A stretch of 64,000 nt of DNA. Origin: Candidatus Woesebacteria bacterium RBG_13_46_13 (GTDB taxonomy: Bacteria; Patescibacteriota; Microgenomatia; UBA8517). Numbering within the stretch: the stretch's first letter is position 1; the number at the start of each line of letters is the position of its first letter. The notes beneath the pieces are model-generated. The model saw only the letters and a list, made by a program, of their open reading frames with translations. It had not been told where the DNA came from and searched no databases. The translations under genes were made by a program, and so were the position numbers. The stretch covers positions 14,880-78,879 of the forward strand of contig MGFR01000001.1 of NCBI GenBank assembly GCA_001791995.1, read 5' to 3'. Below are positions 4,750 through 46,690 of the stretch, piece by piece.

Positions 4750-7668
<2,919 letters not shown>

Positions 7669-7750
7669 TTTCTCTTCAGATTTTAAAGTACAAATCAAAC
7701 GTTAATGAGCAGTGGACAGCCCCGATATCAAATCGGGGCTCACCACTACC

Positions 7751-7827
7751 CACTGGTGGACCCGGGGAGAGTCGAACTCCCTGCCTCATCATTGCAAATG
7801 ATGCGTTCAAACCGGGTAAACTTCGGG
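7751..7827 (-). tRNA. tRNA-Ala (anticodon UGC), CCA encoded
   Basis: Minus strand: GGGCCCGAAGTTTACCCGGTTTGAACGCATCATTTGCAATGATGAGGCAGGGAGTTCGACTCTCCCCGGGTCCACCA. G3-U70 wobble pair in the acceptor stem, anticodon loop TTTGCAA. It lies about 80 nt upstream of the 23S. Confidence 0.9.
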
Positions 7828-7863
7828 CCCTCTGGGAACTTAAATTAGGCTGTTAGGTGCAAC

Positions 7864-7890
7864 TAAAAAACCGGCAATTGAAGCCGGTTT
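7864..7890 (-). terminator. Hairpin plus U-tract (intrinsic-terminator-like) in the leader of the tRNA-Ala/23S unit. It may be read through by rRNA antitermination.
   Basis: Minus strand AACCGGC-TTCAATT-GCCGGTT followed by TTTTTTAG. It is preceded by a boxA-like CACGCTTTTAAATTAAA. Confidence 0.35.
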
Positions 7891-7986
7891 AATTTAAAAG
7901 CGTGTTTGCTCCACGCAGTTTCCCGCGTGTTTATTTTGGAATATAAGAAACGCTTGTCATTAAATTTGCTTCAATTAGCAAGGCAT

Positions 7987-8016
7987 ATTATATAGGAGAA
8001 TTGCAAGAAGCGTCAA
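7987..8016 (-). promoter_or_regulatory. Strong sigma70-like promoter reading leftwards into tRNA-Ala/23S/5S.
   Basis: Minus strand: TTGACG (plus 8011-8016), 16-18 nt spacer, TATATAAT (plus 7987-7994). It lies between the end of the upstream minus-strand CDS (8092) and tRNA-Ala. Confidence 0.5.
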
Positions 8017-8091
8017 GGGGACAAAAGAACAGGGCCAGGAACCAGAAATCGCACGAGGCGAAACTGGGCCTGGCCCAAGCATCGAATCTTC

Positions 8092-8661
8092 TCACCAAGC
8101 CGCACAAACCTGATCCACAGCGCTCTCCCCCAAGACGGCACCTGCCAGTTCATCGACAAAGCAGTAGAGTGTGTCGTCTGGAAGGTGCATCGTCCAGGTT
8201 TCCCACGGCCTTCCGGGGATTTTTTCCCACTCTCTACCTGAAATTCGGTAATAGAGCTCGCCTCCCAAGCACTCGGGTGCGGGGAAATCATCCACAATGC
8301 AGTGGGCAGAATTCAACCGCCTCGTGGCTAGAAAGCGAATGGCCTCCCCCTCATCGGGTGCCTGGGAAGGGATGGCCTGCTGTCCGGCTTGCCGATGGAG
8401 ATCGAGCTCCTCCTGCTCCATGGCCAGAATGCTCTCTATCAGATCGAGCATCGCCGAATCTGAAGCAAACAGATCCGAAATGCTCTGCTCGTCGTTGGCC
8501 AGGCGCTGGTTGTTTAAAGTTATGTACTCACCTATATAGCCTAGCCCCTCGACGGTCAGACCCCTCGAGGCCTCAAGGCCTTCGACCTTGACCCACAAAC
8601 CCACAACGAACAGGGCCAAGACAATAACCGCAACTGCCAAGATCCAGGTGATCGCTTTCAT
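8092..8661 (-). CDS. Hypothetical membrane-anchored protein (N-terminal TM plus an extracytoplasmic domain of about 150 aa). GC is elevated.
   Basis: 189-aa ORF with TM WILAVAVIVLALFVVGLWV. GC is roughly high-50s percent by eye against a mid-40s background. The overlapping plus-strand ORFs 8001..8591 and 8297..8539 look like shadow ORFs. Confidence 0.55.
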   Translation of the reverse strand: MKAITWILAVAVIVLALFVVGLWVKVEGLEASRGLTVEGLGYIGEYITLNNQRLANDEQSISDLFASDSAMLDLIESILAMEQEELDLHRQAGQQAIPSQAPDEGEAIRFLATRRLNSAHCIVDDFPAPECLGGELYYRISGREWEKIPGRPWETWTMHLPDDTLYCFVDELAGAVLGESAVDQVCAAW

Positions 8662-8806
8662 GCTCCCCTCCTTTGGGAATCAGGTTTATGATTTCAGGGT
8701 GCAAGACTCCGCCAAATGCGGATGCCGAAGTATATCCTATAGATGTTATCAAATCAAACAGGGGCAGTAATCAATTCGCTTTCGCGAAAGGCACTTGCCC
8801 CCGAAC

Positions 8807-9340
8807 TTACTCTACCTGTCCATTGAAACGCTCAATGGCTACCAATATCCCCTCGCCGGTCCGGAAGAAGGCTGGAAGGCTCCATTCATCGGGAGAAACC
8901 ACATCTTGGGCACTTCCCGAGTCTGGATCGTACCAGGCGATGAGCAGATCCCCCGCTCCGATATTGGACAGCGTGGTTTCGGCGATAACCGTTCCGCCTT
9001 TCTCGCGCAAGCAGATGCGCAATTCCTCGCCAATAGGAACATTGACGTAGGTGTTGGCGTCGTAAGGCCCCACCCCCGAGTAGTCTTGCATCTCTCCGAT
9101 GGTGAAATACTCTCCCGCCTCTCCCCGGTGTCCGAAAAAGACCAACGCGTTGTTGTCTAACCCCCGGACCCGGGCCTCGAAGATCATCTGCCTAAACCAG
9201 GCAACGGCCTGCTCCCTCTCCAGACCCGAGACCCTGGCATCGACCGATGAAGCCCTCAAGCCCAGGGTGTAGAGATTGATAATCAACAACAGGAGCAACG
9301 AGTGCAGCAATATCAGGCCAACCTTCAACCACTTGTTCAT
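8807..9340 (-). CDS. Hypothetical membrane-anchored protein. GC is elevated.
   Basis: 177-aa ORF with TM LKVGLILLHSLLLLLIINLY and a GGAGGAG RBS 8 nt upstream. It sits upstream of and co-oriented with 8092..8661. Confidence 0.55.
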   Translation of the reverse strand: MNKWLKVGLILLHSLLLLLIINLYTLGLRASSVDARVSGLEREQAVAWFRQMIFEARVRGLDNNALVFFGHRGEAGEYFTIGEMQDYSGVGPYDANTYVNVPIGEELRICLREKGGTVIAETTLSNIGAGDLLIAWYDPDSGSAQDVVSPDEWSLPAFFRTGEGILVAIERFNGQVE

Positions 9341-9434
9341 TCTTCTCCTCCGGTTTTTAAAGGGCGAATTCGGCGTGGCTCAATATACACCCAAATTGTT
9401 TTCGAGGCAAAATTGTGCTAAATTATGCCAATCC

Positions 9435-9508
9435 CGGGCGATTGGTTCAGCGGTAGAACGCTTTCCTGATAAGAAAGAGGTGGATGGTTCGACTCCATCA
9501 TCGCCCAC
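9435..9508 (+). tRNA. tRNA-Ile (anticodon GAU)
   Basis: GGGCGATTGGTTCAGCGGTAGAACGCTTTCCTGATAAGAAAGAGGTGGATGGTTCGACTCCATCATCGCCCACC. Anticodon loop CTGATAA. This is the canonical rRNA-spacer tRNA, but it is on the opposite strand to the rRNA genes. Confidence 0.9.
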
Positions 9509-9571
9509 CCCATATCCCACGGGGAGTGTGCACTACAATTTAGCCAAACTCGCATATATAATAGAAATCGT

Positions 9572-11704
9572 ATGACCAACCTGACCACCCTACTTCTTAG
9601 GCTTCCCCGTAATATCGAAGTCACACCGGAGGCCGCGCAAACCTTCCTCTCCGCCCTGACCCAGATTAACGGAGTTTCCTTTTTTCAAAGAATAACCGGG
9701 ACTTCTTCTCAGCCTCTTTCTCTCGAAATTGCCCTTATCAACCAACAAATCCAGTTTCTGATTACCTGCGATACGGAGCTGGTTCCGTTTGTTACCACCC
9801 AGATTCAATCCAACTACCCACTGGTAATCACCGAGAAAGTCCAGGACCCGATTGCCCAAAGGCAATTGTTTGTTACCAACCTGACTCTCAGAAACGGCAG
9901 CTATTACCCTTTGGCAACCTACGCCAACTTCACCGACATCGACCCTTTGGCCTCCATTCTTTCAGTTTTATCCAAAAGCAACCCCGACGATGTGGCAATA
10001 GTCCAGGTCGCACTGGAATCCACTTCCTCTTCTTGGCAATCGGCAGGAGCCTCTTTTGCCGAAAAAGGCAGGAAAAACGAGGATGGAACATATGCCCCAA
10101 GGCAGGACCAAAACGTAATTAAAGAGAAGATTTCTTACCCAGGCTTCAAGGTCTCCATTAGGGTTGCTGCCAATACGAATGAAACCCGAAAGGAGATGGT
10201 TTCCGCTTTCGGTGTTTTTTCCAGGGCAGACGGGAATTCTTTTAAGGCCAAGGGTTCTCCCCTGTTTAATAAGTCCGCCCTTTACCAAAATCTTTTCTCC
10301 CGAAAGGTTACCGACAATCAAATTTTAAACATCGTCGAGCTGGCAACTATCTGGCACCTTCCTTCCGACAAAATCAAAACACCAACTATAGCTTGGGGCC
10401 AGGCGGTTCTATCCGAACCTCCTGAAAACCTGCCGGTTGCCCTGGATGCCAACGAAGAGGAGAAAAAGCATATCAACTTCTTCGCCAAGACGCTTTACAA
10501 AAACCACGAAACGATTTTCGGAATTAAAGACATCGACAGAAGAAGACACATTTGGACAATCGGAAAAACGGGTACGGGTAAGTCTACCCTAATTGCCAAC
10601 ATGGCCATCGACGATTTGAAAAAGGGCCGGGGTTTGGCAGTCATTGACCCGCACGGAGACCTTTGCGAGATCATCCTGGACTACATTCCCAAAAGCAGGA
10701 TAGCTGATGTGGTCTACTTTAACCCGGCGGATAAGGATTACCCCATTGTCATCAACCCCCTGGAGGTCACCAACAAGGAGGAGGCGGAACTGGTGGTTTC
10801 AGGAATAGTTTCCATTTTTAACAAGATCTTCGGTTTCTCCTGGGGGCCAAGACTCGAGTACATCTTGAGAAACTCTTTAATGACCCTGGCCGAGATGCCC
10901 GATTCCACCTTAAAAGACGTGCCGCTTCTTCTTACCGACAGGGGCTTTAGAACCCGAGCCGTGGAAACCATCAATGATACGGTGCTGAAAGACTACTGGA
11001 CCTACGAATTTAACAAAATGACGGAAAAGCTGCAGCAGGAAGCCATTGCCCCGATCTTAAATAAAGTCGGGCAGTTTGTGACTTCCCCTTTAATCAGGAG
11101 CGTCATCGGCTCCCCCAAAAGCACGATTCAACTCGATGATGTTATGAACGGAGGCAAAATCCTTTTGGCCAACCTTTCCCAGGGACGCTTGGGAGAGGAT
11201 AACGCGGCCCTTTTAGGAGCAATGCTGATTACCAAACTCCAACTCGCCGCCATGCACCGGGTAGATATGCCGGAGGAACAAAGGCGGGATTTCTATCTTT
11301 ACGTCGACGAGTTCCAAAACTTTGCCACCGGGAGCTTTATCAAGATCATGTCCGAAGCCAGAAAGTACCGCTTAAACATTATGCTGGCGAATCAATACAT
11401 GGCCCAAATTCCCGAAGAGGTCCAAAAGGCAATTTTGGGAAATGCCGGGACAATAGTTTCGTTTGCGGTCGGGGCCTCCGACGGAGAAATTCTTTACAAA
11501 GAGTTTGCGGAGGTCTTCTCCCAAAACGATTTGGTCAATCTTTCCAATTACCAGGTCGCCATCAAAATGACCATCGACGGCTTAACTACCCGGCCGTATC
11601 TTGCCCATACCCTACCCCTGCCGATCTCCATCAACCAAAACAGGGAGAAGGTCATCCGTATCTCGCGCGAGCGCTGGAGCAAGAAGCTCGCAGGCAACCT
11701 ATAA
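9572..11704 (+). CDS. VirD4/TraD/TrwB-like (FtsK-HerA superfamily) P-loop ATPase, a type IV coupling-protein-like protein. Copy 1, with no N-terminal TM.
   Basis: Walker A IGKTGTGKST, then DPHGDL, Walker B FYLYVDEFQNF, and ANQ motifs. 710 aa. It aligns along its whole length with the ORF at 46725..49049 but lacks that ORF's roughly 35-aa N-terminal TM segment. Confidence 0.85.
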   Translation: MTNLTTLLLRLPRNIEVTPEAAQTFLSALTQINGVSFFQRITGTSSQPLSLEIALINQQIQFLITCDTELVPFVTTQIQSNYPLVITEKVQDPIAQRQLFVTNLTLRNGSYYPLATYANFTDIDPLASILSVLSKSNPDDVAIVQVALESTSSSWQSAGASFAEKGRKNEDGTYAPRQDQNVIKEKISYPGFKVSIRVAANTNETRKEMVSAFGVFSRADGNSFKAKGSPLFNKSALYQNLFSRKVTDNQILNIVELATIWHLPSDKIKTPTIAWGQAVLSEPPENLPVALDANEEEKKHINFFAKTLYKNHETIFGIKDIDRRRHIWTIGKTGTGKSTLIANMAIDDLKKGRGLAVIDPHGDLCEIILDYIPKSRIADVVYFNPADKDYPIVINPLEVTNKEEAELVVSGIVSIFNKIFGFSWGPRLEYILRNSLMTLAEMPDSTLKDVPLLLTDRGFRTRAVETINDTVLKDYWTYEFNKMTEKLQQEAIAPILNKVGQFVTSPLIRSVIGSPKSTIQLDDVMNGGKILLANLSQGRLGEDNAALLGAMLITKLQLAAMHRVDMPEEQRRDFYLYVDEFQNFATGSFIKIMSEARKYRLNIMLANQYMAQIPEEVQKAILGNAGTIVSFAVGASDGEILYKEFAEVFSQNDLVNLSNYQVAIKMTIDGLTTRPYLAHTLPLPISINQNREKVIRISRERWSKKLAGNL

Positions 11705-11706
11705 TC

Positions 11707-11734
11707 TTGCAATCCTTGCATTCTGTGGTATAAT
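11707..11734 (+). promoter_or_regulatory. Sigma70-like promoter TTGCAA-N16-TATAAT upstream of the GC-rich gene, with a 5' UTR of about 240 nt.
   Basis: TTGCAA at 11707-11712, a 16-nt spacer, and TATAAT at 11729-11734. Confidence 0.5.
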
Positions 11735-11799
11735 ATCGCAGTTCCCAATTGGCCCTTAAGCGGGCTTCAGATATGGGGTTTTTAGGTTCCTAGTACATT

Positions 11800-11815
11800 A
11801 ACAACGGGAGAACAA
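11800..11815. repeat. Left copy of a perfect 16-bp inverted repeat, AACAACGGGAGAACAA.
   Basis: It is the exact reverse complement of 13224-13239. It lies in the 5' UTR of the GC-rich gene. Confidence 0.6.
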
Positions 11816-11977
11816 AAACAAACGCCATCCCTGGCGATAATCAGGGAAACGCACGGTTTGCCTTAGACGGAGAAGTCTCTTGAGACTGCTAGCATGCAAA
11901 TCTCATGAGGAGCAGTCTCCCAAGGAGATCTATCCGCCAAGGGCAATCCTATTTCAAACGCACAACGGAGGTGCACA

Positions 11978-13159
11978 ATGAAAGGTCGCGGAATCAAGCT
12001 TCTGGCTTTGTTCGCGATCCTCGTTTTGGCTCTCGGCGCCACCGGCGCGGCCTTCGCGGCCCCGCCTCCGGCACCGAACGCCACCGGTCAGGACCAGGTC
12101 TGTCCGCACGACACGGATGGTTGGTCGTCCCATCAGGATCCCGGAACCTTCGGGGCTGTTGAGGGCGCTACCAACTACTGCGTCAAGGGCGGCAGTGAGC
12201 AGTCCGAATGCACCGGCTACCTCGAGATCGGCTCCTTCGAGTTTGTCTCGGGGATCCTCGGCGCTGAAGGCGCCTGCGGCCTTTCCCACTGGTCCTACCA
12301 GATGGAAGATGAGCCGGAGGTGGCCAGCGTTAGCGTCGACCCCGGCTCGTGTTACTGGGATGGCGCGTCCTACACGGACGTCGTCGTCGACATGACCGGC
12401 GCCGGCACGCTGACCATCACCGGGCCTGGCGGGCCGTACACCCGAACGGGTGACGACACGCTGACCTTGGGACCCGGCAGCTACAGCTGGACTTTCGTTC
12501 CGGCCGAGGGCTACGAACTTGAAGGACCCGGCTCGGGTTCCTTCGAAGTCGGGACGTGTGAACCCGAAACGGATCCCGCCTCGGTGAGTGTCGAACTCGG
12601 AACCTGCCGCTGGAGCGAGCAGTCAGGGTCTCAGACCCCACTGTCTTTCACCATCAGCGGCGAGGGCACGTTCTCGATCAACGGTTCCGACTACACCTCC
12701 GACGACGAGATCCTGCTCACGCCGGGAACCTACGGCTGGACTTTCGTTCCGGCCGAGGGGTATCACCTGGTTGGGCCGGGCTCCGGGAGCGTCGAAGTGC
12801 TCTCTTGTGAGCCTCCGCCTCCTGGCGGGGCATCGGGTTCGTTTGCGCTGTACTGCGGTGGCGGGATCAACGTCGCCCTGTCCAATGCCCAGCTCACGAT
12901 CGACGACCTGGACCCGATCCTCGAGAACGGGTCGTACGGGCTGAGCCTCGGTGAGCACACCTTCCTCTGGGAGGCTTTGCAGGGGTTTGAATTCCCTGAG
13001 GGCTTCCTGCTGCGAGGCGTCTTCACCATCGTCCCGTGCGGACCGCCCGACGAGCCGCCTACCGGCCCCGAAGGAGCTCTTCCCATCGCGGAAGGACTCG
13101 CTTTCCTGGCCTTCAGCGGCCTTGGAGCGCTCGGCATCCGGCGCATGAAGAAGCACTAG
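11978..13159 (+). CDS. Secreted Cys-rich repeat protein. Strongly GC-rich and compositionally foreign.
   Basis: 393 aa with signal peptide MKGRGIKLLALFAILVLALGATGAAFA. Two copies of a module of about 75 aa (PGSYSWTFVPAEGYELEGPGSGSFEVGTCEP / PGTYGWTFVPAEGYHLVGPGSGSVEVLSCEP). C-terminus is LPIAEGLAFLAFSGLGALGIRRMKKH, a hydrophobic helix plus a basic tail. Codon usage is dominated by GCC/GGC/CCG, with GC roughly 60-65% by eye. RBS is GGAGG. Confidence 0.8.
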   Translation: MKGRGIKLLALFAILVLALGATGAAFAAPPPAPNATGQDQVCPHDTDGWSSHQDPGTFGAVEGATNYCVKGGSEQSECTGYLEIGSFEFVSGILGAEGACGLSHWSYQMEDEPEVASVSVDPGSCYWDGASYTDVVVDMTGAGTLTITGPGGPYTRTGDDTLTLGPGSYSWTFVPAEGYELEGPGSGSFEVGTCEPETDPASVSVELGTCRWSEQSGSQTPLSFTISGEGTFSINGSDYTSDDEILLTPGTYGWTFVPAEGYHLVGPGSGSVEVLSCEPPPPGGASGSFALYCGGGINVALSNAQLTIDDLDPILENGSYGLSLGEHTFLWEALQGFEFPEGFLLRGVFTIVPCGPPDEPPTGPEGALPIAEGLAFLAFSGLGALGIRRMKKH

Positions 13160-13177
13160 CTTCTCTCTGCCGCCCAA

Positions 13178-13220
13178 CTGAGGGGCACCTGCACCTTTTG
13201 GTGCCCCTCAGTTTCAGTTT
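13178..13220 (+). terminator. Rho-independent terminator of the GC-rich gene.
   Basis: Perfect 12-bp stem CTGAGGGGCACC / GGTGCCCCTCAG with a 10-nt loop, followed by TTTCAGTTTC. Confidence 0.7.
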
Positions 13221-13223
13221 CTC

Positions 13224-13239
13224 TTGTTCTCCCGTTGTT
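13224..13239. repeat. Right copy of the 16-bp inverted repeat, TTGTTCTCCCGTTGTT.
   Basis: Reverse complement of 11800-11815. It lies immediately after the terminator. Confidence 0.6.
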
Positions 13240-13262
13240 CTACTTCATCTGCTAAAATAACC

Positions 13263-14267
13263 ATGAAAGAACAAAAACCAATTCATATGTCCGAACAGAA
13301 TAAATCATCCCTCGATTCTTGGCGCAGCAAACCCGCCGAGACCCCCAAACCCAAACTCTCAAGAAGAGGTTTTCTCAAAGGCGCCGTTTTGGGCGGAATC
13401 GGTCTCGGAGGAGCAGTCTATTCGGGTTTGAAGTTTTTGGAAGGATTGGGGCTTGAGCTGCCGCATAACTCCTTCGAACAAGAGCTACAGGCTCTTCCCA
13501 GGGAAGCTACGCCTACCCCCTTTCAGCCACGGGAGACCACTCCCGCGTCTTCGACTCAAACTCCTGAAGCAACGCCTGAACCATCCCCTACTCCGGAGGC
13601 CATCAATTATTGGGCTTTTGCCAAGGCGGATTTTTCCGATTCCGAACACTTAATTGACATGATGATTACCCTGAGGGATTCTTCCAGCCTTTTGGTTCCA
13701 TCCTTCATCCCCATCTCCTGGCATGATGGTCTTCAGCTAAGCGTAGATTTTGATCGGAGAAGAAATACCGGCCTTACCTATCTTGACGAGGACAGACGAA
13801 AAATACTTAATTTACACTCAGGAAGAGAAGGACCTTTGCACTCCGGCTACACCATGTGGGAAACCCAACTGGCTATTGAAACGGATGGACGGGGCAATAG
13901 AATTTATCCTGCCCAAGCCGACGAAAAACTTAGAACCCAGTTTATGGGAGCGGATGTCTTAATAAGACAAACCGAGGCAGGACTTGCCAAGATAGTAGCC
14001 GCGGTCAGGGTCCCCCCCAGCCTGGTCTACGAATCCACCCAGCACGTCTATGAAGAAACAGACCCTTCAGGTAGTGTCACCAACGAAGGGATAATCCCCT
14101 GGCTGGCAGCCAACTTCCCGGACAGCGGATTTGCGGATGTTGTCAACGACCGGGAGGTTTTAATTATTAAATTCTGCGGCAGAATCTTAAGCGGAGAGCG
14201 GGAGGATACCAGAATCGATTCGCCTTATCAGCAGGCACGCTTCTTCTTTGCCCTAAAGCAAAGTTAA
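13263..14267 (+). CDS. Hypothetical exported protein with a twin-arginine (Tat)-type signal, a PT-rich linker, and a C-terminal domain of about 200 aa.
   Basis: The track ORF is 13224..14267; the likely start is the ATG at 13263 (MKEQKP...). Signal SRRGFLKGAVLGGIGLGGAVYS matches S-R-R-x-F-L-K. The linker is rich in P/T/E. Confidence 0.7.
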   Translation: MKEQKPIHMSEQNKSSLDSWRSKPAETPKPKLSRRGFLKGAVLGGIGLGGAVYSGLKFLEGLGLELPHNSFEQELQALPREATPTPFQPRETTPASSTQTPEATPEPSPTPEAINYWAFAKADFSDSEHLIDMMITLRDSSSLLVPSFIPISWHDGLQLSVDFDRRRNTGLTYLDEDRRKILNLHSGREGPLHSGYTMWETQLAIETDGRGNRIYPAQADEKLRTQFMGADVLIRQTEAGLAKIVAAVRVPPSLVYESTQHVYEETDPSGSVTNEGIIPWLAANFPDSGFADVVNDREVLIIKFCGRILSGEREDTRIDSPYQQARFFFALKQS

Positions 14268-14281
14268 CTTATTTTCCCACT

Positions 14282-14312
14282 AAAAAACCACCTCATTAAA
14301 GGGTGGTTTTTT
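14282..14312. terminator. Bidirectional intrinsic terminator. It ends the plus-strand CDS and lies about 100 nt beyond the 16S 3' end on the minus strand.
   Basis: AAAAAACCACC-TCATTAAAG-GGTGGTTTTTT, with A-tract and T-tract on either side. Confidence 0.7.
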
Positions 14313-14411
14313 GTTGTCTTTGACGACCAGGAAATGACTAGGAGGAAGCCCGTTTTCTTAACAGTGAAACGGCGAATTTAAAACTGGGGTGTAAAATACC
14401 ACACTCCTTAG

Positions 14412-17190: not shown

Positions 17191-17409
17191 TTATTCTACC
17201 ACAGGGCTAGGATGCCCGGGGGCTACATTGGCAGAAATTCTATCAAGCCTACGCGAGACTCTTTCTAAATCCCTACTTCCCCTGACCGGCCTGATGCTTT
17301 CTCGTAAGCTAGCGGCAACCGAAGATAGCTCGCCTGCAATTTTCTGAAGCCTTCCTTCCACCAAAGACAATCTGCTTCCAATTTCTTGTGCTTCGTGTCT
17401 TTCGTGCAT
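17191..17409 (-). CDS. Hypothetical small coiled-coil protein of about 72 aa, translationally coupled to the upstream gene.
   Basis: Its ATG overlaps the stop of 17409..17651 in a TAATG arrangement. The track lists a longer ORF, 17191..17607, that would overlap the upstream gene. Confidence 0.35.
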   Translation of the reverse strand: MHERHEAQEIGSRLSLVEGRLQKIAGELSSVAASLRESIRPVRGSRDLERVSRRLDRISANVAPGHPSPVVE

Positions 17410-17651
17410 TACTTCTTGCCTTTTTTTTGGAAAAAGGCAAGGTAAATGATCGGGAGGATCCCTACGCTGTTGACGATCAACAGCGCCAGAAACCACCCTT
17501 TCTGTGCTTTTCTGGCGGATTTCCAAAGCGCCATCCCCCTCCAAACGAGGTCCCAGAGGATGACGGGAACCATTACCCACCAGAAATAAAAGGGCATATT
17601 CGCCCAATTATTGTAATTCATGGCCCAAAACATAAATATATTATAGAACAA
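17409..17651 (-). CDS. Small membrane protein, PLDc_N-like (cardiolipin synthase N-terminal-like) family.
   Basis: 80 aa with two TM segments and the W-rich motif WDLVWRGMALWKSARK. Confidence 0.6.
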   Translation of the reverse strand: MFYNIFMFWAMNYNNWANMPFYFWWVMVPVILWDLVWRGMALWKSARKAQKGWFLALLIVNSVGILPIIYLAFFQKKGKK

Positions 17652-17659
17652 GAAGGATA

Positions 17660-17720
17660 AAAAAGAGAAGCCCTGGAGAGATTCGACGAGTTGCGTGTCG
17701 AAATTTCCCTCTCCAGGGCG
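17660..17720 (-). terminator. Strong intrinsic terminator at the end of the GC-rich non-coding region.
   Basis: 11-bp perfect stem (plus 17671-17681 with 17710-17720) and a 28-nt loop. On the minus strand it is followed by CTTCTCTTTTTTATCC. Confidence 0.6.
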
Positions 17721-18072
17721 GAAACAATGGTGGTCGCCAGGGCGATATCGGGGTCTTTTTCAACGGGGGCTGGCGGTTTTGCCACCTACGAACTACGCTT
17801 CCTGCGGCCTTGCATCTCCCGCGAAGGGTTTCGACTAGGCACCGCGTTGGCGCCAATGTCGAGCATAAGCCGCGACTGACCCGGCGGTGTATTTCTTGTG
17901 CCAGATCTTGCCTTATCCGCGCAGACCCGATGTCAAACCACGAATGTGCTGCTTCCCCGCAGCAGACGGAATGGCCCCTCGGTAACTCCCGTGTCGCCCT
18001 GACGACCCCGAGAAACCAGCAAGAATTATGTAAGCTTCTCGGGGGCGTCAGTTAAACAACAAAATCAATGTG
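17660..18072 (-). ncRNA. Candidate structured non-coding RNA of about 410 nt, GC-rich, identity unresolved.
   Basis: There is no credible ORF in any frame. GC is roughly 60% against a mid-40s background. On the minus strand there is a near-consensus promoter TTGACA-N16-TAAAAT (plus 18080-18107). Then multiple GC-rich hairpins, for example TGCTGC-GGGGAA-GCAGCA and CCCGAGAA...TTCTCGGG. It ends in an 11-bp perfect stem GCCCTGGAGAG/CTCTCCAGGGC followed by TTCTCTTTTTT. Confidence 0.4.
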
Positions 18073-18079
18073 CGCAATT

Positions 18080-18107
18080 ATTTTAGCAAGAATAGGAAAG
18101 TTGTCAA
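18080..18107 (-). promoter_or_regulatory. Near-consensus sigma70 promoter TTGACA-N16-TAAAAT reading leftwards into the GC-rich non-coding region.
   Basis: Minus-strand -35 TTGACA is plus 18102-18107. The -10 TAAAAT is plus 18080-18085. Confidence 0.5.
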
Positions 18108-18130
18108 TTCCCTACCTAAAATGGTAAAAT
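18101..18130 (+). promoter_or_regulatory. Candidate promoter TTGTCA-N18-TAAAAT for the tRNA Glu-Lys-Gln cluster. It is back-to-back with the minus-strand promoter.
   Basis: TTGTCA at 18101-18106 and TAAAAT at 18125-18130. tRNA-Glu starts at 18149. Confidence 0.4.
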
Positions 18131-18148
18131 AACTCGCTTCCTGGGTTT

Positions 18149-18221
18149 GACGCCATCGTCTAACGGCTTAGGACGAGGCCCTTTCAAGGCCTAAATACGA
18201 GTTCGATTCTCGTTGGCGTCA
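18149..18221 (+). tRNA. tRNA-Glu (anticodon UUC)
   Basis: GACGCCATCGTCTAACGGCTTAGGACGAGGCCCTTTCAAGGCCTAAATACGAGTTCGATTCTCGTTGGCGTCA. Anticodon loop CTTTCAA. Confidence 0.9.
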
Positions 18222-18232
18222 CAGAAGAGCTT

Positions 18233-18304
18233 GGGCCCATAGCTCAACGGCAGAGCAAGTGCCTTTTAAGCACGTGGTTGGGGGTTCGAATCCCTCTGGG
18301 CTCA
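18233..18304 (+). tRNA. tRNA-Lys (anticodon UUU)
   Basis: GGGCCCATAGCTCAACGGCAGAGCAAGTGCCTTTTAAGCACGTGGTTGGGGGTTCGAATCCCTCTGGGCTCA. Anticodon loop CTTTTAA. Confidence 0.9.
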
Positions 18305-18309
18305 CATAA

Positions 18310-18383
18310 TGCGGGATCGTCTAATGGTAGGACAGTGGTCTTTGGAACCATCAATCGGGGTTCGAATCCCTGTCCCGCAGCCA
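18310..18383 (+). tRNA. tRNA-Gln (anticodon UUG), U1-A72 pair, CCA encoded
   Basis: TGCGGGATCGTCTAATGGTAGGACAGTGGTCTTTGGAACCATCAATCGGGGTTCGAATCCCTGTCCCGCAGCCA. Anticodon loop CTTTGGA. Confidence 0.9.
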
Positions 18384-44392: not shown

Positions 44393-44487
44393 ACTGGGCT
44401 GCTACATGCGGGGTAGTGTACGGCTGCACGGAAGGCTCATAATCTTCCAGGCTAGGTTCAACTCCTAGCCCCGCAACACGGATTTGA

Positions 44488-44559
44488 GCCAACGTAGCTC
44501 AGCGGTAGAGCAAGGATTTCATAAGTCCGAGGCCAGAGGTTCGAATCCTCTCGTTGGCA
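44488..44559 (+). tRNA. tRNA with CAU anticodon (elongator Met or Ile2-lysidine type; G1-C72 pair, so not an initiator)
   Basis: GCCAACGTAGCTCAGCGGTAGAGCAAGGATTTCATAAGTCCGAGGCCAGAGGTTCGAATCCTCTCGTTGGCA. Anticodon loop TTCATAA. Confidence 0.85.
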
Positions 44560-44561
44560 CT

Positions 44562-46615: not shown

Positions 46616-46619
46616 ACTG

Positions 46620-46690
46620 TGGGCTCTGAGAGAGTCGAACTCCCGCGTCGACTTTATAAGAGTCGTGTCCTGCCGTTAAACGAAGAGCCC
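46620..46690 (-). tRNA. tRNA-Ile with the unusual UAU anticodon (the AUA decoder)
   Basis: Minus strand: GGGCTCTTCGTTTAACGGCAGGACACGACTCTTATAAAGTCGACGCGGGAGTTCGACTCTCTCAGAGCCCA. Perfect 7-bp acceptor stem, perfect 5-bp anticodon stem, loop CTTATAA. Confidence 0.8.

Follow-up and report, generated by a model that had tools for sequence, protein, structure and literature searches.

A structured RNA element was identified on the minus strand of a 64,000-nucleotide (nt) stretch of contig MGFR01000001.1 from Candidatus Woesebacteria bacterium RBG_13_46_13, hereafter the window. The next gene downstream encodes a small membrane protein of the DUF5652 family, and the element is on balance best read as a stand-alone gene for a stably folded and probably abundant RNA of about 415 nt, a member of an undescribed family restricted to the clade around this bacterium. 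By general type it is a structured non-coding RNA in the generic sense only, with a conserved, covarying fold and no coding signal.

Homologues were collected by three routes, namely from contigs encoding relatives of the adjacent AAA_17 kinase-like protein, from a metagenome scan with a degenerate 20-base pattern taken from the best-conserved stretch of the RNA, and from contigs encoding the closest relatives of the DUF5652 protein. The kinase route gave three loci (L001-L003) with kinase homologues 54-65% identical, the local gene order kept, and a gap of about 450 nt upstream of the DUF5652 gene that was matched by the window RNA at E = 1e-38 to 1e-45; a search of genome contigs with the same protein found no relatives, and look-ups of two window proteins by exact sequence had no recorded match. 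The kinase-like protein itself is 100% identical to one recorded for Candidatus Woesebacteria bacterium RBG_13_46_13. The pattern scan returned 84 metagenome loci, of which seven were true homologues and the remainder chance matches, and the DUF5652 route added the divergent copies L170 and L168, the 5'-truncated L173 and the partial L174, L169 and L171. Altogether 17 loci were found, representing about 12 distinct sequences from about a dozen metagenomes or samples, with nhmmer E-values of 1e-11 to 1e-141. The RNA is 89% identical to its nearest relative (L026) and 66-70% identical between subgroups, where the flanking proteins are 54-75% identical. Its ends and three helices are near-invariant, while the middle is variable and carries lineage-specific insertions. 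Searches of viral contigs, phage genomes and plasmids for the RNA were negative. Nothing else in the window resembles it, be it as a further copy or as a related sequence, and this holds for the insert at 8-13 kilobases (kb) too.

The element is delimited by a promoter and an intrinsic terminator, both conserved. The promoter combines TTGACA (18107-18102) and TAAAAT (18085-18080) across a 16-nt spacer, matches the consensus at 11 of 12 positions and has a TG at 18088-18087. A promoter scan by itself proves little, because three promoter-like sites were found in the 2 kb scanned against 1.8±1.4 in shuffled sequences; a TTGACA-16/17-TAAAAT promoter is, however, kept in every homologue that reaches that far. 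In the same homologues the RNA starts, seven bases past the -10 box, with GCACAUU or its variants GCUCAUU and GCACUUU. At the other end, all homologues finish in a bulged terminator hairpin followed by a U-rich tract. The arms of the outer stem (17709-17719 and 17670-17680) are complementary at 11 of 11 positions, and compensatory changes in L168 and L170 affect both stems of the hairpin. An automatic terminator scan overlooked this structure (17719-17659), because its loop holds an inner stem of 6 base pairs (bp) and exceeds the 8-nt loop limit. The original prediction, made from the sequence of the window, had proposed an unassigned structured RNA running from this minus-strand promoter to an 11-bp perfect stem with a U-tract, and both signals are present as described; the conservation, the covariation and the absence of a coding signal reported below support the proposal as a whole.

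On the opposite side of the promoter region, a divergent promoter on the plus strand (TTGTCA-18-TAAAAT, 18101-18130) points at a tRNA Glu-Lys-Gln cluster (18149-18383). The -35 hexamers of the two promoters, TTGACA on the minus strand and TTGTCA on the plus strand (18101-18106), overlap almost base for base within 18101-18107. This overlap raises the possibility that the two promoters, both serving stable RNAs, may compete for RNA polymerase. The back-to-back arrangement with the tRNA cluster had also been pointed out beforehand; it is present in this genome, in L026 and probably in L170, but does not recur throughout the family.

A 426-nt stretch covering the element folds with a minimum free energy (MFE) of -175.9 kcal/mol (z = -4.89), and none of 100 shuffled sequences folds as well, in agreement with the multiple stable hairpins that had been predicted. 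Independent MFE folds of 13 sequences share one architecture, with which RNAalifold agrees. It begins with a 5' hairpin, H1, followed by P1, a 14-bp helix closing a domain of about 250 nt; P2, P2b and P3 stack on P1 via conserved internal loops (ACGGGAGUUACCGAGGG opposite CCCCGUUGAAAnAGACCCCG) and lead into a multi-branch centre with several conserved hairpins, and the RNA ends in the terminator hairpin. The analysis of covariation with relatives that had been suggested as a check was run on an alignment of these 13 sequences, with 67 named pairs and with column shuffles and partners slid by 1-3 columns as controls. At the 67 pairs, 95.6% of the cells are paired, compared with 38-51% when the partners are slid. 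Changes on both sides of a pair were found at 16 pairs, against 5.2±1.6 in the column shuffles (none of 500 reached 16) and 0-5 with slid partners. The compensatory changes are located in H1, P1, P3, two inner hairpins and both terminator stems. The covariation is good evidence for the fold, short of definitive, because the sequences are related and few.

The 5' strand of P1 has a second partner. A sequestor segment near the 5' end, which reads GUUCUUUGGCG in most relatives, can pair with it and thereby extend H1, to the exclusion of P1. When this pairing is counted as a lengthening of H1, it comprises 21 pairs, with 97.8% of the cells paired. Pair 28-78 occurs as GC in six sequences, AU in four and GU in one, and pair 25-81 as UG in eight, CG in two and UA in one; bases 78 and 81 covary also with their P1 partners, 413 and 410. 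Since the sequestor pairing and P1 both covary, the RNA looks bistable in these models, either passing through or toggling between two folds. In predicted folds of the nascent first 90-100 nt, every homologue forms a hairpin of 26-32 bp that buries the whole P1 5' strand. Constrained energy calculations place the two states of the full-length RNAs only 2-8 kcal/mol apart; of the 11 sequences, nine favour P1, whereas L002 and L170 favour the long hairpin. During transcription the long 5' hairpin would form first, and P1 would follow only about 250 nt later, because its 3' strand is made after the hairpin. The rearrangement from hairpin to P1 could represent an obligatory step of co-transcriptional folding or a regulated on/off switch. 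An alternative pairing that disrupts the terminator and has been kept by evolution was not found, and the sequestor/P1 alternative leaves the terminator untouched. At 17709-17745 the P1 3' strand (CGCCCUGGCGA) is repeated almost identically, in the same direction and 24 nt away, by the terminator 5' arm (CGCCCUGGAGA); no covariation linking this repeat to a switch was found.

The G+C content in 200-nt windows at 17700-17999 is 59-61.5%, compared with 44-48% in the flanks. The whole RNA has 56.1% G+C, the 16S rRNA gene 53%, the tRNA genes 54.5% and the window 48.8%, so that the block is indeed richer than its flanks, although its earlier description as much more GC-rich is somewhat overstated. 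Open reading frames (ORFs) overlapping the block are short and mechanical only (55-81 amino acids (aa)), and searches of these internal ORFs against Pfam gave no convincing match, the one hit being weak and below the cut-off (Bradykinin, E=0.059). Variable columns are spread evenly over the three codon positions (88/92/91), showing no codon periodicity, 227 of the 294 internal gap runs have lengths not divisible by three, and no open frame is conserved across the homologues. The original prediction had seen no plausible ORF here and had named a protein-coding pseudogene in relatives as the outcome that would overturn it; the alignment with relatives revealed no coding signal of this kind.

Table 1. 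Features of the RNA element and the adjacent DUF5652 gene in the window.
Feature	Position	Strand	Remarks
-35 box of the RNA promoter, TTGACA	18102..18107	-	Conserved in all homologues extending that far
Extended -10 box, TGCTAAAAT	18080..18088	-	TAAAAT invariant in the alignment
Predicted transcript, about 415 nt	17659..18073	-	5' end from -10 spacing and conservation; 3' end in the U-tract
5' sequestor (alpha), UGUUGUU...CUGACG	18046..18061	-	Pairs with the P1 5' strand, extends H1; mutually exclusive with P1
Hairpin H1, CCCGAGAAGCUU / GGUUUCUCGGGG	18006..18043	-	Stem almost invariant, loop variable; compensatory A-U to G-C in L168
P1 5' strand, GGUCGUCAGGGCGA	17994..18007	-	Pairs with 17745-17732
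P2, P2b and P3 5' strands in the conserved core, ACGGGAGUUACCGAGGGGC	17974..17991	-	Alignment and fold
Variable multi-branch central domain	17771..17973	-	Hairpins GCUGC...GCAGC and GGYGCC-AAC-GCGGYRCC; CGCGGC/GCCGC three-way junction
P3, P2b and P2 3' strands with conserved internal loop, GCCCCCGUUGAAAAAGACCCCG	17749..17770	-	P3 pairs 103/376, 105/374 and 106/373 covary
P1 3' strand, UCGCCCUGGCGACC	17732..17745	-	Compensatory changes at three pairs
Terminator hairpin	17670..17719	-	Outer 11-bp stem GCCCUGGAGAG/CUCUCCAGGGC, 5' bulge, inner stem UUCGAC/GUCGAA
U-rich tract, TTCTCTTTTTT / UUCUCUUUUUU	17659..17669	-	Directly after the terminator stem
TATAAT box, 6 nt upstream of the DUF5652 ATG	17640..17645	-	Likely -10 box of a leaderless-type promoter
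DUF5652 gene, 74 aa, small two-helix membrane protein	17409..17633 (ATG 17633)	-	PF18893, E=1.1e-23

In every locus with enough sequence, the DUF5652 gene lies directly downstream of the RNA and on the same strand. The outer contexts vary, with at least four arrangements upstream of the RNA and at least five beyond DUF5652. Upstream of the RNA are divergent tRNA genes (window, L026, L170), a co-directional tRNA gene (L020), a gene of about 606 aa (L001, L002, L003, L015, L087, L030) or another ORF (L168). Beyond DUF5652 are the kinase gene, either directly or after extra genes (window, L001-L003, L008, L015), an ABC transporter (L170), a convergent gene (L168) or other small ORFs (L173, L174). 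A conserved core region has the order CopA-type ATPase, thioredoxin, TrxB, DsbA-like gene, tRNA cluster, (606-aa gene), RNA, DUF5652 and kinase, and is represented by L003 (14149-14852), L001 (7241-7475), L002 (5283-5518), L015 and L087; in L003, as in the window, the 16S gene follows a few kb downstream of the RNA region. Between DUF5652 and the kinase gene the window holds an ORF of 72 aa (MHERHEAQ..., 17191-17409), the ATG of which overlaps the DUF5652 stop codon (TAATG). This ORF is absent from L001, L003, L015 and L008, in which the kinase gene comes directly after DUF5652.

A TATAAT-like box stands 5-11 nt (mostly 5-8 nt) before the DUF5652 ATG in all homologues, and L173 has a complete TTGACA-17-TAAGAT at this place. 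Many other ATGs in the window are preceded by TAnAAT, often as TGnTAnAAT, at a distance of 5-9 nt (for example the starts at 2700, 9572, 17185, 18940, 32077, 44343, 56680 and 57698), and a Shine-Dalgarno-like (SD-like) motif was found for ten of the 64 long ORFs. Judging by these start-site patterns, leaderless or near-leaderless mRNAs seem to predominate in the genome. Since the -10-like box is conserved and leaderless-type starts are common in the genome, DUF5652 appears to have a leaderless-type promoter of its own.

The DUF5652 family extends well beyond the loci that carry the RNA. A set of 80 further DUF5652 loci (L088-L167) from GTDB genomes, including DPANN archaea, other members of the candidate phyla radiation (CPR), Margulisbacteria and others, was searched with nhmmer and with a covariance model of the RNA 5' domain, and none of them contains the RNA; their median upstream gap is 50 nt. 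The RNA is also absent from L172, the nearest DUF5652 subgroup outside the RNA family. In the set of 80, a tRNA gene ends within 400 nt upstream of DUF5652 in six loci, four of them on the same strand, where about 1.5 would be expected from the tRNA density there, and no tRNA gene lies within 400 nt downstream. DUF5652 may therefore tend to sit behind stable-RNA genes in general. Literature searches on DUF5652 and on structured RNAs of CPR bacteria found nothing relevant.

The position of the RNA before DUF5652 raises the question of whether it acts in cis. As a leader it would form the 5' untranslated region of DUF5652; formation of the terminator would then depend on the balance between the long hairpin and P1, which a signal would tip. 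The constancy of the DUF5652 neighbour amid variable outer flanks fits this explanation, as do the intrinsic terminator standing between the structured RNA and the DUF5652 ORF, the two mutually exclusive pairings, both supported by covariation, and the resemblance of the P1 3' strand (GCCCUGGCGA) to the terminator 5' arm (GCCCUGGAGA). However, the candidate antiterminator, in which the P1 5' strand would pair with the terminator 5' arm, gains a mismatch in L170, where a P1 pair changed from G-C to A-U and the terminator arm did not follow. Moreover, the P1 5' strand is occupied in either state, leaving the terminator free to form; the conserved -10-like box stands at a leaderless distance from the DUF5652 ATG, in a genome with many such starts and few SD motifs; and about 415 nt is far larger than known riboswitch leaders. 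The 80 loci with short upstream gaps and no such RNA led to the rejection of the element as a general leader of DUF5652 genes. A cis-acting leader is thus considered rather unlikely, although it is the strongest competing explanation, and a stand-alone RNA is favoured over it. Several points nevertheless weigh against the stand-alone gene as proposed here. The transcription start (about 18073), the 3' end and the abundance of the RNA are all inferred. The terminator ends only about 25-35 nt upstream of the DUF5652 ATG, a spacing like that of an attenuator. DUF5652 does not need the RNA in general, because the 80 loci of other lineages do without it, and the RNA-linked DUF5652 proteins look no different from RNA-less ones, such as P0127 in L172. 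Finally, all homologues come from one fairly narrow clade, so that shared descent may explain part of both the covariation signal and the adjacency of the RNA and DUF5652, and the shuffle control does not remove the relatedness among the sequences.

Another candidate explanation is a highly divergent housekeeping RNA, namely RNase P RNA, transfer-messenger RNA (tmRNA), signal recognition particle (SRP) RNA or 6S RNA. Size, a strong promoter and terminator, a G+C content above the genome average and proximity to tRNA and rRNA genes would fit rnpB or ssrA. No canonical gene for RNase P RNA, tmRNA or SRP RNA was found in the 64-kb window and about 68 kb of relatives' loci, an absence that is uninformative for genomes of about 1 Mb. 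The search of Rfam covariance models proposed in the original prediction was carried out with Rfam 15. At the gathering score, rRNAs and tRNAs were detected in the window and nothing in the RNA region; at E<=10 with lax filters on 17500-18250, and at E<=1 on eight homologue loci, only chance microRNA-type matches on the H1 hairpin appeared. The RNaseP_bact_a/b models gave no match at any of these levels. The consensus fold, with its 5' hairpin, nested closing helix and 3' terminator hairpin, is fully nested and thus unlike RNase P RNA with its P4 pseudoknot, and no conserved GGAAAGUCC / ACAGAA-type segments are seen in the alignments. For tmRNA both ARAGORN and Rfam were negative; instead of paired 5' and 3' ends, a T-arm, CCA and a tag ORF, the RNA has the 5' end GCACAUU, a terminator at its 3' end and no conserved tag ORF, and its middle, where such an ORF would be expected, is its least conserved part. 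SRP RNA and 6S RNA gave no covariance-model match and differ in size and topology, and OLE RNA had no Rfam match. Likenesses noticed by eye (an SRP GGAAGCAGC motif, a T-loop in the terminator hairpin and a tRNA-Glu acceptor) are short, unconserved or incompatible with the covarying fold. Given also the narrow clade in which the RNA occurs and its constant association with DUF5652, a housekeeping RNA is very improbable, and the earlier suggestion of a divergent CPR version of RNase P RNA, tmRNA or SRP RNA finds no support. Least probable of all is that the block is non-functional, a piece of decayed foreign GC-rich DNA or a pseudogene that folds by chance. Its G+C content above the flanks and the presence of other GC-rich insertions in the window (for example 65% at 12-13 kb) would agree with such an origin, but the promoter, 5' end and terminator are kept in the roughly 12 distinct relatives, compensatory changes occur in 16 helix pairs, and codon periodicity, indels in threes, a conserved ORF and a convincing Pfam match are all missing. 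Nor does the RNA resemble anything in the remainder of the window or in the phage, plasmid and viral collections searched. The earlier proposal of decayed foreign DNA sharing its origin with the 8-13 kb insert is refuted, because the element is conserved with promoter and terminator in relatives whose neighbouring proteins are only 54-75% identical, and because it has no similarity to that insert. Of the options originally listed, a novel non-coding RNA is the one supported.

As a stand-alone gene product, the RNA would act in trans in its folded form, as the scaffold of a ribonucleoprotein (RNP) or as a catalytic or binding RNA. Its partner could, by analogy, be the DUF5652 membrane protein encoded directly downstream, in parallel to OLE RNA and OapA, a suggestion that is put forward only tentatively. 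For OLE RNA, it was the neighbouring membrane-protein gene that gave the clue to the OLE-OapA membrane RNP (PMC11332333). Both RNAs are large, structured and conserved, with their genes beside that of a small membrane protein. The differences are considerable: the Woesebacteria RNA is about 415 nt in length versus about 600 nt for OLE RNA, its host is a CPR bacterium rather than a member of Bacillota, and OapA has four helices whereas the DUF5652 neighbour is a two-helix protein of 74 aa, unrelated to OapA in size. In addition, DUF5652 is widespread without the RNA, and the DUF5652 proteins encoded beside the RNA have no distinguishing traits; both observations speak against the partnership. 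The most specific form of this idea is also more doubtful, namely that the element may be a new CPR-lineage class of large RNAs, a switchable RNP or ribozyme working with DUF5652, OLE-like and independently arisen, with a two-state 5' domain gating the active fold.

Like GOLLD, ROOL, raiA and HEARO, the element is a structured RNA of several hundred nt with a conserved multi-branch fold, and the functions of these RNAs are unknown or recently glimpsed. Some of these large orphan RNAs are often found near tRNA genes, and tRNA genes flank the Woesebacteria RNA in the window, L026, L170 and L020. It has, however, no Rfam match to any of these families and no association with phages or plasmids; its gene is chromosomal, limited to one clade, and placed before the 16S gene in a core region that is conserved. 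Attenuation leaders such as riboswitches and the T-box share with it a promoter, alternative pairings and an intrinsic terminator upstream of a same-strand ORF; they differ in being two to four times shorter, and the Woesebacteria RNA has no covariation-supported antiterminator, no Rfam riboswitch match and a downstream gene that appears to have its own leaderless-type promoter. What it has in common with RNase P RNA and tmRNA is a similar size, a raised G+C content and a gene of its own, with strong promoter and terminator, in the vicinity of tRNA and rRNA genes; a P4-type pseudoknot, a tRNA-like domain and a tag ORF are missing, and the topology is different. The predicted folding path recalls the SRP RNA of E. 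coli, in which an early 5' hairpin is displaced by a much later 3' strand to give a long-range helix. In the Woesebacteria RNA, unlike that of E. coli, the early hairpin itself shows compensatory changes and is the more stable predicted state in two of 11 sequences; for these reasons it may be functional in its own right, beyond serving as a folding intermediate.

Some further features of the window concern its rRNA and tRNA genes. The 16S (15872-14412) and 23S (7666-4751) genes are about 6.7 kb apart (7667-14411), and the interval contains a 710-aa ATPase-like ORF, a secreted-looking ORF of 393 aa in a kilobase of 65% G+C, and tRNA-Ile(GAT) on the opposite strand (9436-9509), while tRNA-Ala alone stays beside 23S. 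Two tandem tRNA-Met(CAT) genes are located at 44407-44560, and a tRNA-Ile with anticodon TAT (UAU) at 46619-46690. The UAU anticodon of tRNA-Ile is uncommon in bacteria.

The element is a new family among the orphan large structured RNAs of bacteria, so far known from one Woesebacteria-related clade, and the reach of the finding is limited because of this confinement. Large structured bacterial RNAs are few, and those that are understood are ribozymes or the cores of RNPs. Hardly any non-coding RNA of CPR bacteria has been studied experimentally, and the genomes of these bacteria are very small; an important role for an RNA of about 415 nt is likely in such organisms, because their small genomes keep its consensus promoter, near-invariant helices and covarying fold. 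The RNA is also an unusually clean case of compensatory evolution in each of two helices that exclude one another. Furthermore, it offers a testable partner hypothesis for DUF5652, a widespread protein family of unknown function. If the OLE-like reading were true, the RNA and DUF5652 would constitute a membrane-associated RNA machine that has arisen independently in ultra-small bacteria.

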